This document shows, one piece after another, positions 273-5,176 of a stretch of DNA of 5,176 bases. The notes under the pieces are model-generated. The model searched no databases. It was not told where the DNA came from and saw nothing but the letters and a program-made list of their open reading frames with translations. The stretch lies in the IMG/VR virus record IMGVR_UViG_2703718861_000008. One strand, written 5' to 3'. The stretch's first letter is position 1; each line of letters starts with the position of its first letter. The DNA is from a virus (lineage: Duplodnaviria; Heunggongvirae; Uroviricota; Caudoviricetes). The position numbers and the translations under genes are program-made.

Positions 273-677
273 CCGGGCATTCTCTGCCCGTTTCTTCGCT
301 TCCTCTGCACTCGCCGCCGACGCTTCAGCACGCTTCAGGATTTCCGCTGCCACCGCTTCCAGCTCTGCAAGCGCTTTCGGGTAATACTGCGCCTCATCCT
401 GTTCCATCAGAAATTTATTCAGCGTTCCCGGCTCAGAATCCGCCTTCACCAGAATGTCACCCACATACGACGGGGCGTACCCTTCCGTGTTCAGCGTCAC
501 CCGGTACCACCCCGGCTCCACATCAAAACTGTAACTGCCGGTTTCCCCCGGCTGCCCCTGCGCCACCGTGGTGACTATCACTGTCTCTGTGGTGCGTCGC
601 GCTTTCAGCTCTATGGTGCATCCCGGCACCGGCTTCCCGGTGCCGTCCTTCAGCACGCCCGATATTCTGACTGTCAT
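1..677 (-). CDS. stf: Side tail fibre protein Stf homologue, N-terminal 225 codons (3' end of the gene lies beyond the left edge of the window)
   Basis: My manual minus-strand translation from the ATG at 677..675 gives [99 protein letters not shown]..., which matches the lambda Stf N-terminus as I recall it ([28 protein letters not shown]...DSQPGTLNDFL). It is followed by an alanine-rich predicted helical segment and then Gly-X-Y repeats. Shine-Dalgarno GGGAGA at 688..683, 5 nt before the ATG. The frame is open to position 1. The track does not list it because no stop falls inside the window. Confidence 0.85.
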
Positions 678-759
678 AGATTTCTCCCATAAAAAAAACC
701 GCAGTACCGGTTACCCGGTCTGCGATCAGGGGTATAAATTGTGACTGGCTGGTGTTAAA

Positions 760-861: not shown

Positions 862-3800
862 TCACGATGCGGTATCAAAATCGTCTGTATAGGATTTCAG
901 GTAAAACAGAACCGGGTCATGGATCCGAATTTTACTCTTATCATGAAGTATTGAACCACCCATGTAAAAAAGCACATCTGCTTCATACCTGAATGTAATT
1001 TCAACCCGCACATCACCCTGTCCGGCAGGAATACTCCATGAGCCTGACGCATTTCCGCCAACATCAGAATATACCGGCTCATATCTGCTGGCGTTTTTGG
1101 AAATCTGGACCTCCCGCTCCCCGGTTTTGACTTTGCCTGACCTGGCATGAACGACAACTTTGTCATTTATCTTCATGATGAATTCACCTCTGGAAAATGA
1201 ATACGCCATAAGCATAAGCTTGCGATCAAACGGCATGTTGTCTTTCAGCAAAATCATTTTCTGAAAAGTCAGCTGGTTCTGAGTCATTACGCCCTGCCCC
1301 ATATCAACCGTGTATCCCTTGACGATATCACCAATGATTCGGTCAGCGCTCATCGTTCCATTAATGGTACAGTCTTCCGCAATCGTCACGTTATTCAGCG
1401 TACCGGAACTGGCACTGATATTCCCGCTGATATCGGCATTACGGGCCGTCAGCCTGCCGTCCGGCGTCAGGGAGAATGCCGGGGGATTGCCGCCGCTGGT
1501 AATGGTGGGGGCGGTAAGAACCTTTATCAGGGCCTCATTGATAAACGTCTGTCCCCCCTGCGTGACCAGTGCGGGTGTGGTATCACCATTCTCCGGATTA
1601 ATGAATGCCACACGGTCCGCTGCCAGCAGTATCTGGCTCTGCATCCCGTCAGGGGTGTTCTCAATACCGGCACCGATACCGGCAATATAGCGACGACCAT
1701 CCTGCATCTGCTGTAGCTTCACCGCCCACATGCTGTTCAGGTCATTATTTGTGTCCGTCTGCACACGCTGGATTTGCTGTATGGTGGCGTTCTGGTCCTC
1801 CAGCGTTTTACTGACCGTCTGCGTGATTTCATTGCGGGTTTCTGTGATGGTGGTCTGCATTTCCGCCATCTCGTCCTTCAGCTGACTGTTGTCAATCTCT
1901 GCCCACAGCGCCTCTGCCAGATGCGTTTTTCCTATCTTTTCCCGGAAAAGTTCCAGATAGCCCGCAGCATCATTGCTCGCCCGTCCACTGGCTTCAACAA
2001 ACGCGGATTTACCCACCAGATTGACGCTGCGCACGTAAAACCAGAAAACTTTCCCGGGTTTAATCTGGCTGCCGGAGACGCTCCACTGGCTGCCTGTCCC
2101 CAGATAACGGGCAGAGGTTTCCACCTGTGCGGCGTCTGCAATTTTTGCCTCCGAAAACCAGAACTCAAACTGCACCGTCGGGTCATAAATGGTCAGTTTC
2201 GGGACTGCCGTTATCTGAAAATACCCCGGCGTCAGTTCAACACCGGCAGGCGCTGCCGGTGCGTTAATCCGGAACGTGGTGGTGGCGGGTTCGCCCTGCT
2301 GGCCATAGCTGTTAATCGCCCTGACCGTCAGGGTGTATTCCCCGGGAGGCAGGCCACTGAAACGGTGCTCCGTATCGGCAGTGATGGCGGTGGTCAGCAG
2401 GCGGCTGTTCTCACCGCTTCCACTGGTCAGGCGCAGACTGAAGCGCACGCCCTTCACCACCCTCGGCGTGTCCCATTTCGCCAGCGCCAGATACTGGCTG
2501 TCAGCTGCGCTCACCTCCACCGTGAGGTGCTGTACTGCCGGTGGGATAACGCTGTTCAGGGTGCCTGACTGCGGCTCAAAGCGGGCCCCGTTATCCACGA
2601 TGGCTTCTTTTTCCGGTACGTGCTGCACCGCCGTAACGGCAAAGGTGCCGTCCGTGTTTTCCCGGATGGCCACACAGCGGAACAGGCGACGGCGCAGTGA
2701 CGGCAGGGAGAGTCCCCACACCCCGTATGTCTCCACACCATCAGGCAGGGTACTGACCTGTATCCGGTCCGGCGCGGGGTGTGCGGTGATGTCCACACTC
2801 ACCGGCTTACCGCTGCCGTTAATCAGGTTCACCGTCGATGCACCTGTCCCCGGAAGTGTCACTTCACGGTCCAGCGTCAGGGTGCGGGTGGCAGCATCAA
2901 TGGACAGGACACGTCCGCCGGTCAGGGTTCCGGCATAGTCGTTATCACAGATTTCAATGATGTCACCGGGTGTGTGCCGCAGCCCCTGAGACCCGAGTGT
3001 GAAATCCACCGTCTGCGTTTCCAGCAGTTCGGTCTTTATCACCCACAGCCCGGCACGGTGGGCCTGACCGCGGCTGGTACAGCCGAACGCGTCCATCTTC
3101 AGCAGGTTGCGTCCGTAGCGCAGTATGGCTTCCGGGTCTTCCACCAGTTCCGTGGAGGTCTGCCAGCCGTTCTGCGGGTCGGTGTAATTCACCTCCACCG
3201 CCGTGTGCCGGTCCTTCAGGGCACTGAAGCTGTAGCGGAACCCCACGCCGTTATCATCCACCACCACATCGCTGTTGGTGTACGGCCACACCACATCCGA
3301 CGGGCGGTCCTGAACGAACGTCAGCGTCTGGCCGTTCCATACCGGCATACAGCGCATCGCCGAGCAGAAATCACTGAGAACGTCCCACGCCTTACGCTGT
3401 TGTGCCAGGTACGCATTAAAGGTCATCCGCGGCTCGGTGCCCCCGAAGCCATCCGGCACCATCTGGTCGCAGTACTGCCCGATGGCATACAGCGCCCATT
3501 TGTCCACGTCTGCCGCCCCCAGGCGTTTTCCCATCCCGTAGCGCGGGTGAGTCAGCATGTCCCACAGGCACCAGGCCGGGTTATTGCTGTATGCCGGTTT
3601 CAGACTGCCGTCCCAGATACCACTGTACGTGCGTTTTTCCGGGTCATAGTTTGACGGCACCTGGATGATGCGACCGCGGATATGGTAGTTCACCGTCATC
3701 TGCTGGCCGCCGAACTGCTCCGCATCCACCTGCAGCCCCACAATGGCCGTGTTCGGGTAGCACTGTTTCACATCGATGATTTCGGTGTATGACGACCAGA

Positions 3801-4392
3801 GCGTCTTATTCTGCAGCTGGTCCGTGGTGCTGTCCGCCGTCTCCCTGACCATCCGGATGTTAAAGGGCCGGGGCGGCAGATTATCCAGAATCACCGACGC
3901 CAGGAACTGCGAGGTGGTCTTGCCGTTAATGGTGACATCCTTTTCTGTCACCCAGTTACCGTTACGCTGTAACTGAATCAGCAGACGGACAGAGGACGGA
4001 TTACGGTCACCCTTTGACGTGGTCTCCACCAGTGACTGCACCCCGAAGGTCACCCGCAGGCGGTCAATGTTCGCTGACGTGATGGTGCGTGTCACCGGTT
4101 TTGCCTTCGTCACTTCCACACCCAGTACAGTTTCAGCTCCGGAGGACTCAAAGCCTTCCGGTGGTGTCTGCTCCTGCTCCCCGGCACGCCAGACCGCTGT
4201 CACACCGTGTATCACGGGATTACCGTCCGTGTCCGTCAGCGGGGTTTTGTTCACCAGGATACTCTGCAGTCCCTTCACCGGACCTTCCACCGGTCCCTCA
4301 CCAATGGCATCAATCACACTCATCATCTGCGTGGATTTGAGATTGTCTTTCGCCTCGCGCGGTGTGTGCGCCTTGCCGCCGCCTTTGCCCAC
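862..4392 (-). CDS. J: Host specificity / tail tip fibre protein J homologue (~1176 aa), with a diverged C-terminal receptor-binding region
   Basis: The track ORF 862..4443 (1193 aa) matches lambda gpJ as I recall it along most of its length: VGKGGGKAHTPREAKDNLKSTQ versus lambda MGKGSSKGHTPREAKDNLKSTQ, plus long conserved blocks such as NKTLWSSYTEIIDVKQCYPNTA, AWCLWDMLTHPRYGMGKRLGAADVDKWALY, LTAPTITSGGNPPAFSLTPDG. I place the start at the GTG at 4392..4390, which aligns with the lambda initiator Met and has a purine-rich Shine-Dalgarno (AAGGGGGA) a few nt upstream. The track's TTG at 4443 lies inside the U-tract of a terminator-like hairpin and would add 17 residues with no lambda counterpart. 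Stop TGA at 864..862. Confidence 0.93.
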   Translation of the reverse strand: MGKGGGKAHTPREAKDNLKSTQMMSVIDAIGEGPVEGPVKGLQSILVNKTPLTDTDGNPVIHGVTAVWRAGEQEQTPPEGFESSGAETVLGVEVTKAKPVTRTITSANIDRLRVTFGVQSLVETTSKGDRNPSSVRLLIQLQRNGNWVTEKDVTINGKTTSQFLASVILDNLPPRPFNIRMVRETADSTTDQLQNKTLWSSYTEIIDVKQCYPNTAIVGLQVDAEQFGGQQMTVNYHIRGRIIQVPSNYDPEKRTYSGIWDGSLKPAYSNNPAWCLWDMLTHPRYGMGKRLGAADVDKWALYAIGQYCDQMVPDGFGGTEPRMTFNAYLAQQRKAWDVLSDFCSAMRCMPVWNGQTLTFVQDRPSDVVWPYTNSDVVVDDNGVGFRYSFSALKDRHTAVEVNYTDPQNGWQTSTELVEDPEAILRYGRNLLKMDAFGCTSRGQAHRAGLWVIKTELLETQTVDFTLGSQGLRHTPGDIIEICDNDYAGTLTGGRVLSIDAATRTLTLDREVTLPGTGASTVNLINGSGKPVSVDITAHPAPDRIQVSTLPDGVETYGVWGLSLPSLRRRLFRCVAIRENTDGTFAVTAVQHVPEKEAIVDNGARFEPQSGTLNSVIPPAVQHLTVEVSAADSQYLALAKWDTPRVVKGVRFSLRLTSGSGENSRLLTTAITADTEHRFSGLPPGEYTLTVRAINSYGQQGEPATTTFRINAPAAPAGVELTPGYFQITAVPKLTIYDPTVQFEFWFSEAKIADAAQVETSARYLGTGSQWSVSGSQIKPGKVFWFYVRSVNLVGKSAFVEASGRASNDAAGYLELFREKIGKTHLAEALWAEIDNSQLKDEMAEMQTTITETRNEITQTVSKTLEDQNATIQQIQRVQTDTNNDLNSMWAVKLQQMQDGRRYIAGIGAGIENTPDGMQSQILLAADRVAFINPENGDTTPALVTQGGQTFINEALIKVLTAPTITSGGNPPAFSLTPDGRLTARNADISGNISASSGTLNNVTIAEDCTINGTMSADRIIGDIVKGYTVDMGQGVMTQNQLTFQKMILLKDNMPFDRKLMLMAYSFSRGEFIMKINDKVVVHARSGKVKTGEREVQISKNASRYEPVYSDVGGNASGSWSIPAGQGDVRVEITFRYEADVLFYMGGSILHDKSKIRIHDPVLFYLKSYTDDFDTAS

Positions 4393-4430
4393 GGAATCCC
4401 CCTTCACCGTCCGCTGCCGGACACTGTTGA

Positions 4431-4465
4431 TGTATAAAAACAACAGGCACCCCGGAGAGTGCCTG
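4431..4465 (-). terminator. Rho-independent terminator-like hairpin, minus strand orientation, about 40 nt upstream of the J start
   Basis: Perfect 7-bp inverted repeat CAGGCAC (4444..4450) / GTGCCTG (4459..4465) with an 8-nt loop. Read on the minus strand it is followed by UUGUUUUUAUAC (complement of 4443..4432). On the + strand the flanks are A-rich upstream and non-T-rich downstream, so it is minus-oriented. Confidence 0.55.
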
Positions 4466-4503
4466 CATCATGACGGAATAAAAATTCTGAATATCTTCAC
4501 ATT

Positions 4504-4531
4504 TTCACAAACTGACTGTGGCGCTGATAAT
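4504..4531 (+). promoter_or_regulatory. Candidate sigma70-type promoter on the + strand inside the I-J intergenic insert
   Basis: -35-like TTCACA at 4504..4509 (5/6 to TTGACA; a second TTCACA copy at 4496..4501), 16-bp spacer, -10-like GATAAT at 4526..4531 (5/6 to TATAAT) preceded by TG. Predicted start near 4538, about 105 nt upstream of the + strand terminator T-tract. Consensus-matching only; no experimental support. Confidence 0.3.
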
Positions 4532-4537
4532 TTCGCT

Positions 4538-4642
4538 GCGTTAGTGTTTTTTTTGCCGTGACATAAAAAAAAACAACTCCTTAACACTAATCTTCATTTG
4601 TCTGAATCTCCCGCAGCTCCGCGATCACTGCGGGATTTTTTT
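4538..4642 (+). ncRNA. Hypothetical small RNA (~105 nt) transcribed antisense to the tail operon from the I-J intergenic insert
   Basis: Inferred only from the candidate promoter (4504..4531) plus the + strand intrinsic terminator (4610..4642). No + strand ORF longer than a few codons lies in this interval. The predicted transcript contains an A/U-only hairpin (U8 ... A9), a CA-rich single-stranded stretch (AACAACUCCUUAACACUAAUC) and the terminator stem. Ends are approximate. Confidence 0.25.
4610..4642 (+). terminator. Rho-independent terminator-like hairpin, + strand orientation
   Basis: Perfect 7-bp inverted repeat CCCGCAG (4610..4616) / CTGCGGG (4628..4634) with an 11-nt loop, followed on the + strand by A then TTTTTTT (4636..4642) and further T-rich sequence. 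In the minus orientation the stem is followed by AGAUUCAGAC, which is not U-rich, so this element is oriented to stop + strand (antisense to the tail genes) transcription, not to terminate gene I. Confidence 0.6.
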
Positions 4643-4649
4643 ATTCTTT

Positions 4650-5176
4650 TTACCCCTGCCGTCCGATAACCACGACCTTTCCGCCCCCGCCTTCATCACG
4701 GGTACTGATGTCCTGGGATATACGGCGGGAGCCAACCAGCATTTCCCCGTAAGGCACCGGCATCGGGTTCCCCTGGGCAATCATGTTATCCAGCGAGGAA
4801 AAGTACGTGTTCTGTCTGCCGTTATCCGTTGCCCTGTATTCCGGTGTTTTGGGCTTCGGGGCCAGCATCTGAGCCACACCACCCAGTATCATGCTGGCAC
4901 CCAGTGAGAACAGCATCGTGGTGGCAGTCAGCCCTCCGGCACTCAGGGCTGCGCCCCACAACGCCATCGTTGCACCGGCGGTGAAGAAAGAGCCCACAAT
5001 GGCTGCTGCCCCCAGCACCACCTGAAAAACACCATTTCCCCCGGCCCCTGCCAGCCGCGGTACAATATGAATCACGGCCCTCCCGCTCAGCGGTTCATGA
5101 AGACGGGCATACACCGCCTCCGGCGCGGTATCCTCACCGGCAATACGTATCTGGTACCAGCCTTCGTTCATCTGAC
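4650..5176 (-). CDS. I: Tail assembly protein I homologue, C-terminal part (5' end of the gene lies beyond the right edge of the window)
   Basis: Track ORF 4650..5171 translates to ...GWYQIRIAGEDT...VIHIVPRLAGAGGNGVFQVVLGAAAIVGSFFTAGATMALWGAA...NGRQNTYFSSLDNMIAQGNPMPVPYGEMLVGSRRISQDISTRDEGGGGKVVVIGRQG, which matches my recollection of the lambda gpI C-terminal two thirds (GWYQVRIAG...VIHIVPRVAGAKSGGVFQIVLGAAAIAGSFFTAGAT...NGKQNTYFSSLDNMVAQGNVLPVLYGEMRVGSRVVSQEISTADEGDGGQVVVIGR). The reading frame stays open to position 5176, so the true start is outside the window; the Met at 5171 is internal. Stop TAA at 4652..4650. Confidence 0.9.
   Translation of the reverse strand, partial: QMNEGWYQIRIAGEDTAPEAVYARLHEPLSGRAVIHIVPRLAGAGGNGVFQVVLGAAAIVGSFFTAGATMALWGAALSAGGLTATTMLFSLGASMILGGVAQMLAPKPKTPEYRATDNGRQNTYFSSLDNMIAQGNPMPVPYGEMLVGSRRISQDISTRDEGGGGKVVVIGRQG

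Follow-up and report, generated by a model that had tools for sequence, protein, structure and literature searches.

The window, by which we mean the whole 5,176-nt stretch of viral DNA analysed here, is a lambdoid tail module encoded on the minus strand, as judged from its open reading frames (ORFs) and Pfam matches. It contains the 3′ part of the gene for tail assembly protein I, the gene for the host-specificity/tip attachment protein J and the beginning of a tail-fibre gene with PF08400 and collagen repeats (ATG at 677, minus strand) (Table 1). The I-like ORF, 173 aa long and cut by the window end, had no Pfam match at E ≤ 0.001; probably just the poorly modelled C-terminal part of I lies in the window. 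Using an alignment with the annotated Sakai J start, we placed the start of J at 4392, where the sequence offers a likely GTG start codon with a Shine-Dalgarno (SD) sequence, AAGGGGGA, close upstream. I and J are separated by 257 bp (4393..4649). Since the equivalent gap in phage lambda measures 60 bp, about 200 bp have been inserted at this position.

Both strands of the gap carry recognizable elements. On the late-mRNA strand, a terminator-like hairpin lies ~40 nt upstream of the J ribosome-binding site. This hairpin was invariant between alleles sharing only ~75% identity overall and, because 80 of the 80 loci found through it carry the small RNA (sRNA) core described below, we consider it part of the same ~200-bp cassette. 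It could serve as a Q-dependent read-through point or as an insulator. Another late-strand terminator-like hairpin with a U-run is found at 697..712 (minus strand), directly before the tail-fibre ATG, an arrangement like that of the hairpin before J. The gap also contains a 39-codon minus-strand ORF (4468..4587), the equivalent of which is called a hypothetical protein in the record of phage PhiR12_1. We rejected this ORF as coding, given that the Sakai allele disrupts it with a 10-nt and a 4-nt indel; the annotation over the sRNA gene is probably an artefact.

On the plus strand, antisense to the late operon, the best promoter-like site of the whole window (P1, sigma-70-like, with a predicted start near 4538) is followed by a Rho-independent terminator that ends 8 nt short of the I stop codon on the opposite strand. 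Between 4300 and 4800 we found two promoter-like sites, where 0.5 were expected by chance, and two terminator-like sites against an expectation of 0.6. The fold of 4538..4642 has a predicted free energy of −21.6 kcal/mol and a z-score of −1.86. This z-score is modest alone; the decisive support for a real sRNA gene comes from conservation and from published experiments on homologs.

Table 1. Features of the window around the I–J gap and their basis
Feature	Coordinates	Strand	Basis
Host-specificity/tip attachment protein J gene	862..4392	−	Pfam GpJ domains
Terminator-like hairpin plus U-run, 10 pairs	4434..4466	− (late-mRNA strand)	Strongest terminator-like site in the window
Promoter-like P1: −35 TTCACA (4504..4509), 16-nt spacer, −10 GATAAT (4526..4531)	4504..4531	+	10/12 matches
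Possible 5′ leader (longer primary transcript starting from P1)	4538..4554	+	Fold of 4538..4642
TAnnnT hexamer (TAGTGT), possible alternative −10 (P2)	4542..4547	+	Conserved
Mature PasB-family sRNA, ~88 nt	4555..4642	+	Homology with EPEC PasB (83 nt) and Sakai EcOnc22 (75 nt)
A-rich tract AUAAAAAAAAACAA	4563..4576	+	A positions (nearly) invariant in the alignment
Seed module 1 AACUCCUUAACACUAAUCUUC	4575..4595	+	Core AAYUCCNU … U.AUCUU invariant, centre variable
Seed module 2 AUUUGUCUGAAUC	4596..4608	+	Directly upstream of the terminator; allele-variable
Rho-independent terminator: stem 4609..4616 with 4628..4635, 11-nt loop, U7 (4636..4642)	4609..4642	+	
Tail assembly protein I gene, 3′ part	4650..5171	−	ORF; homologous loci annotated as tail assembly protein I

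An earlier note on this DNA had proposed an antisense sRNA in the gap and left open whether a known example occupies the site between I and J. Such an example exists: PasB (pathogenicity-associated sRNA B), for which our sources were Pearl Mizrahi et al. 2021 (PMC8550237) and a preprint by Zhu, Shabalina & Storz (2026). PasB was reported from prophage PP6 of enteropathogenic E. coli (EPEC) E2348/69 as an 83-nt RNA (minus strand, 1466343 to 1466261; PMC8550237). We found that it is likewise antisense, between a tail assembly protein gene and gpJ. It was detected on northern blots with the probe AATCCCGCAGTGATCGCGGAGCT (PMC8550237), and the complement of this probe gave an exact 23-nt match at window positions 4615..4637. 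Deletion of hfq lowers the PasB level by factors of 2^−6.8 and 2^−2.4, and PasB is higher in the non-activating condition (PMC8550237).

The comparison with published prophage sRNAs that the note had proposed also led to enterohaemorrhagic E. coli (EHEC). In O157:H7 strain Sakai, EcOnc22 (from Sp15, the Stx1 prophage) gives a ~85-nt northern band and is destabilized in an hfq deletion (Tree et al. 2014, PMC4104026 Table S2); EcOnc23 (Sp14) and EcOnc24 (Sp11) are its homologues, and the three correspond to plus-strand Hfq-CRAC peaks (PMC4104026). With coordinates shifted by +135, these peaks fall in the I–J gaps of Sp15, Sp14 and Sp11. The offset was calibrated with AgvB1 and the StxS tR′ end and fixed by the sequence of the CLASH reads. 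Sakai coordinates in Tree 2014 and Waters 2017 run ~135 bp below those of NC_002695.2 near 2.9 Mb, and the uncorrected published coordinates put EcOnc22 on the wrong element of NC_002695.2, namely the late-strand hairpin. RNase E-CLASH hybrid reads of EcOnc22/23/24 (Waters et al. 2017, PMC5286369) read GCCTGAAAAATAACTCCATAACGTTAATCTTCATCGTTCTCTCCCGCAGC, which is the Sakai row of our alignment and homologous to the window segment that the note had flagged.

The window RNA shares 85% identity with PasB and 74% with EcOnc22, for which we used the sequence carried by the CLASH reads. Given the probe match, the antisense position between I and J and this identity, the window feature is an allele of a published sRNA family; going by sequence, the gene is the one already known as PasB and EcOnc22-24. 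It shares with the family the antisense I–J position, homology, a promoter of its own, an unstructured A-rich/AAYUCC seed and an intrinsic terminator (counted as such with a U-tract of at least 4). With PasB in particular the window RNA has in common the position, terminator, U7 tail, promoter layout, A-rich tract and AACUCCUU core. The two differ in the seed centre and pre-terminator sequence, which is UUCACAUUGAUC…UGUC in EPEC and UUAACACUAAUC…UGAAUCUC in the window, and the 5′ part of the window RNA is 4–5 nt longer. EcOnc22-24 have the same position, architecture and core, but the Sakai allele is without 10 + 4 nt and its seed is AACUCCAUAACGUUAAUC.

In the literature searched we found no statement equating PasB with EcOnc22-24. 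The name EcOnc22 was found there in one review only, which lists its targets as unknown, and the PasB table gives EHEC homologues for just PasA and PasD (PMC8550237). We also considered HnrS, a 66-nt multicopy prophage sRNA that represses hha via its ribosome-binding site (Poudyal et al. 2026, PMC13502914). HnrS resembles the window RNA in being a multicopy, Hfq-associated sRNA of the prophage late region, and occlusion of a ribosome-binding site is the mode that we propose for seed module 1. This identity was rejected: HnrS is EcOnc10/11/12, with other Sakai coordinates, and is another gene with another sequence.

The published data also bear on the 5′ end. The EPEC PasB 5′ end (RNA-seq coverage) and the starts of the Sakai CLASH reads, which begin at GCCUG, fall in the same alignment column, corresponding to window position 4554/4555. 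One CLASH chimera joins …CUCUGCGGGAUUUUUUU straight to GCCUGAAAAAU…, that is, a 3′ end to a 5′ end. Because the mapped ends of the homologs align there, we place the mature RNA of the window at ~4555..4642, ~88 nt; the 75 nt given for EcOnc22 are counted from where the CLASH reads begin through the last U of the U-run. The start at 4538 proposed in the earlier note thus fits P1, whereas the mature 5′ end probably lies ~16 nt downstream. On one reading of this 16-nt discrepancy, a leader is removed post-transcriptionally; on another, a second promoter is in use. A TAnnnT hexamer sits 7–8 nt upstream of the experimentally supported 5′ end. Its T and A are invariant in 22/22 representatives, and these include the divergent u6 subfamily, which is without the P1 −10 element; most other family members have TATAAT, AATAAT or GATAAT as the P1 −10. 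The hexamer could be a second promoter, P2.

We sampled the family through a sequence lying outside the gene, namely the late-strand hairpin in front of J, which yielded 81 IMG/VR loci with 46 unique sequences. The core AAYUCC…AUCUU was present in all 80 usable, independently anchored loci, which comprised 14 alleles. The Sakai allele accounted for 40 of these 80 loci and the window allele, the second commonest, for 7. The invariant columns AAYUCCNU and U.AUCUU persist in the u6 subfamily. Members of u6 (IMG/VR L013, L022 and L061) occupy the I–J position with another promoter region and another terminator (CUCCCG…CGGGAG), and keep GCAACUCCUUAAGG. Because u6 retains the core despite its other promoter and terminator, we take the AACUCCUUAA core to be the element under selection. 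Within this frame the seed centre varies, reading UUAACACUAAUC in the window, UUCACAUUGAUC in EPEC and AUAACGUUAAUC in Sakai; partners of the two studied alleles are therefore not transferable to the window allele.

Sequence of the gap occurs in 1,634 of 5,426 complete E. coli genomes, with up to seven copies per genome, and also in many Stx-converting phages. There was no annotation under any listed match of the gap sequence in the complete E. coli genomes. An Rfam scan of the window returned noise only, both at gathering thresholds and at permissive E-values, and a scan of genome contigs with a degenerate pattern (~16.5 bases) gave chance matches only, in unrelated taxa.

The gap might instead be a leftover moron or an insulator, with terminators between late genes and an incidental plus-strand transcript. 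The late-strand terminator-like hairpins before J and before the tail-fibre gene would suit such an account, as would the hypothetical protein annotated on the minus strand in one phage record. Promoter, seed core and terminator are, however, conserved across alleles differing by many indels, the homologs are abundant and Hfq-dependent, and that minus-strand ORF is the one disrupted in Sakai. We regard this account as scarcely tenable, and homology and conservation bear out the plus-strand, Hfq-type sRNA gene, antisense to the late tail operon, that the note had postulated.

The flagged sequence, AACAACUCCUUAACACUAAUCUUCAUUUGUCUGAAUCUC, is found on the plus strand at ~4571..4609, with CUCCUU at 4577..4582, within seed module 1, as the note had stated; CUCCUU is complementary to an SD sequence. 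The note had placed it between two structured elements. In a consensus fold of 22 representatives (RNAalifold), the terminator was the sole conserved helix, with 97% of cells paired and compensatory changes at two pairs, and the consensus upstream of it was unpaired throughout. The 3′ element is thus a conserved intrinsic terminator. The 5′ element, comprising a U-run/A-run and UUAGUGUU/AACACUAA pairing, arises only if folding starts at 4538, and it is not conserved. In the window allele, UUAGUGUU (4541..4548) and AACACUAA (4583..4590) are complementary, and we considered a helix in which the 5′ leader masks the seed. Perfect as this pairing is here, it is without conservation or covariation across the family, the central pairs being unpaired in 14/22 and 11/22 sequences, and we rejected it.

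For the 88-nt form, the CA-rich/CUCCUU segment is predicted to be unpaired, with P(unpaired) ≥ 0.8 over ~4564..4594, in agreement with the note's proposal of a single-stranded, probably base-pairing region. The A-rich tract AUAAAAAAAAACAA resembles the A-R-N repeats that bind the Hfq distal face, and would contact Hfq here. Identity, position, conservation and a predicted unpaired seed are shown here for the window allele itself, and expression, size, Hfq binding and dependence, and partner lists have been observed for its homologs.

Partners are known best from EPEC, where RIL-seq recorded 37 interactions for PasB, ~30 of them with coding sequences or 5′UTRs and no sRNA partner listed (PMC8550237). 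Reading the column meanings from the table legend, we find PasB as the second RNA in ~99–100% of its chimeras, the canonical signature of an sRNA. Among the rows listed, its partners include an RNA of prophage PP2 (774 chimeras, by far the most frequent) and a homologous RNA of PP5 (54), and further E2348C_2648, map, bfpB, hflX, ler, perB, bfpI, caiF and ftsZ. EcOnc22-24 have CLASH partners with one or two hybrids each (PMC5286369). The PP2 partner RNA lies on the plus strand at NC_011601 743482..~743661, between genes for a SASA esterase and a class II holin. It is partly antisense to pasA and carries a terminator of its own and, behind a strong SD, an ORF of nine codons. No partner other than PasB is listed for it, and in chimeras it nearly always takes the first position.

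No motif common to the PasB targets emerged in the original study (PMC8550237). We scanned short target windows of eight RIL-seq partners against the unpaired part of PasB, with shuffle controls that in all cases preserved mononucleotide composition only; unrestricted RNAduplex runs on long fragments were discarded, as they gave unrealistic multi-loop duplexes. A single site, GACAGACAGUGACGGAUGUUGUC, is common to the PP2 and PP5 RNAs and is predicted to pair with ACAACUCCUUCAC and UGUCUGUC at −22.8 kcal/mol (0–1 of 60 shuffles). For caiF, the predicted pairing spans the SD to codon 4, the initiation region (−21.8 kcal/mol, 0/60 shuffles), and for map it reached −25.8 kcal/mol (0/60 shuffles). 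For hflX, ler, ftsZ and E2348C_2648, four of the eight partners scanned, pairing with PasB was no better than with shuffles. The EPEC homolog of module 1 supplied the best predicted duplexes with the PP2/PP5 RNA, with map and with the initiation region of caiF. The module 2 homolog, UCAUUUGUCUGUC, took part in the best duplexes with the PP2/PP5 RNA (8 bp against GACAGACA), map, hflX and ler. Because the best partner duplexes fall in it, the flagged unpaired stretch is the likely pairing platform, made up of two modules, and explains some of the partners only.

The note had gone further and suggested a decoy for host core sRNAs. In such a model the CA-rich segment would mimic mRNA targets and titrate, for example, GcvB, in the manner of AgvB and AsxR. 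The window RNA is like these two in several respects, all three being short Hfq-binding sRNAs of lambdoid prophages with a variable, A-rich 5′ part and a conserved 3′ terminator. The centre of the seed varies between alleles, as in the AgvB/AsxR group, and ARN motifs have been described for AgvB and AsxR (PMC4104026). One CLASH supplementary table names the Sakai locus ‘asxR2’, a name under which the Rfam model detects no AsxR homology. The resemblance does not extend to locus, Rfam match or GcvB complementarity. AgvB and AsxR sit at the P_R′ moron site (PMC4104026), and the window RNA lies between I and J. The Rfam models for AgvB (RF02702) and AsxR (RF02703) gave no match at gathering thresholds, nor at E ≤ 10 on 4400..4700, whereas the AgvB model does detect AgvB1 in Sakai, with 96.5 bits.

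Pairing was compared for GcvB, the one core sRNA tested directly. The window RNA reached −15.4 kcal/mol, and 75 of 100 shuffles did equally well or better; the AgvB control reached −19.7 kcal/mol, with 2 of 100. We thus see no mimicry of GcvB target sites. The interactome of the EPEC homolog is also sRNA-like, not sponge-like, with PasB almost always as RNA2 and core sRNAs not dominating among its partners. We therefore regard the decoy proposal as unsupported and very unlikely.

A role in cis deserves more weight, as the sRNA is always antisense in the I–J gap. Its main function might be to pair with the late-mRNA I–J spacer, so that RNase III cleavage or transcriptional interference tunes expression of the J and tail-fibre genes. 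By construction, its complementarity to the late transcript is perfect (−40 kcal/mol for the cis duplex), its gene faces the late operon in convergent orientation, and the same cassette holds the late-strand terminator-like hairpin. Unlike a classical cis-antisense RNA, however, it covers non-coding I–J spacer only, clear of both the I coding sequence and the J ribosome-binding site (~150 nt away). The homologs have sizeable trans interactomes and need Hfq. Moreover, a pure cis role does not predict an invariant core with variable flanks, because any sequence there would be complementary to the late transcript. We consider a mainly cis-acting RNA unlikely; some effect in cis, by RNase III cleavage or by interference with transcription, is conceivable and would be compatible with a trans role.

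Taken together, these data favour a trans-acting sRNA. With a probability of roughly 0.85, the window carries an allele of PasB, a canonical Hfq-dependent, trans-acting base-pairing sRNA encoded in a ~200-bp I–J cassette with its own sigma-70 promoter and terminator. We infer the paired nucleotides, the regulatory outcome and the targets of the window allele. In the mechanism that we propose, the sRNA would be transcribed from its sigma-70 promoter against the late operon and end at its own intrinsic terminator. The A-rich tract and the U-tail would suit Hfq binding, with ~45 unpaired nt preceding the terminator. Module 1, conserved as AACUCCUU…AUCUUC, would pair with a partner RNA and could cover its SD or start codon; module 2, variable and just before the terminator, may also pair with partner RNAs. 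Duplexes at initiation regions would block translation, and those elsewhere would change RNA stability.

We also looked for trans sites in PhiR12_1, a complete phage that carries the window's seed. The best trans site in this phage forms 11 contiguous pairs, GUGUUGAGGAG, at −20.3 kcal/mol (336..354, plus strand, of sequence L093), and covers the SD of an orphan 113-aa gene at the far genome end near int. By a rough estimate this site could be due to chance, and we treat it as a lead only. A homolog of the EPEC partner site was not found in phage PhiR12_1. With 14 alleles around an invariant AAYUCC…AUCUU frame, the I–J cassette might be a seed-diversifying sRNA locus that mainly serves communication by RNA among prophages of one host, an idea that we hold to be improbable. 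It draws on the EPEC data, in which the leading PasB partner among the rows listed is encoded by other prophages (PP2, PP5), ahead of a holin gene.

The PasB family is widespread and has yet been missed by standard annotation, being without an Rfam family and unannotated at the matches listed. Recognizing PasB at this locus prevents its report as a new element. It also links the EPEC literature on PasB with the EHEC literature on EcOnc22-24, between which we found no earlier connection in the literature searched. The prophages that host this family carry Shiga toxin and effectors, and the EPEC partners include ler, map, bfp/per genes and a prophage RNA beside a holin gene. A defined seed frame together with natural allelic variation makes the family a convenient start for target validation. 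Should crosstalk hold generally, sRNAs of the tail region would modulate or disrupt lysis modules of rival prophages, and seed alleles would co-evolve with their partner sites.
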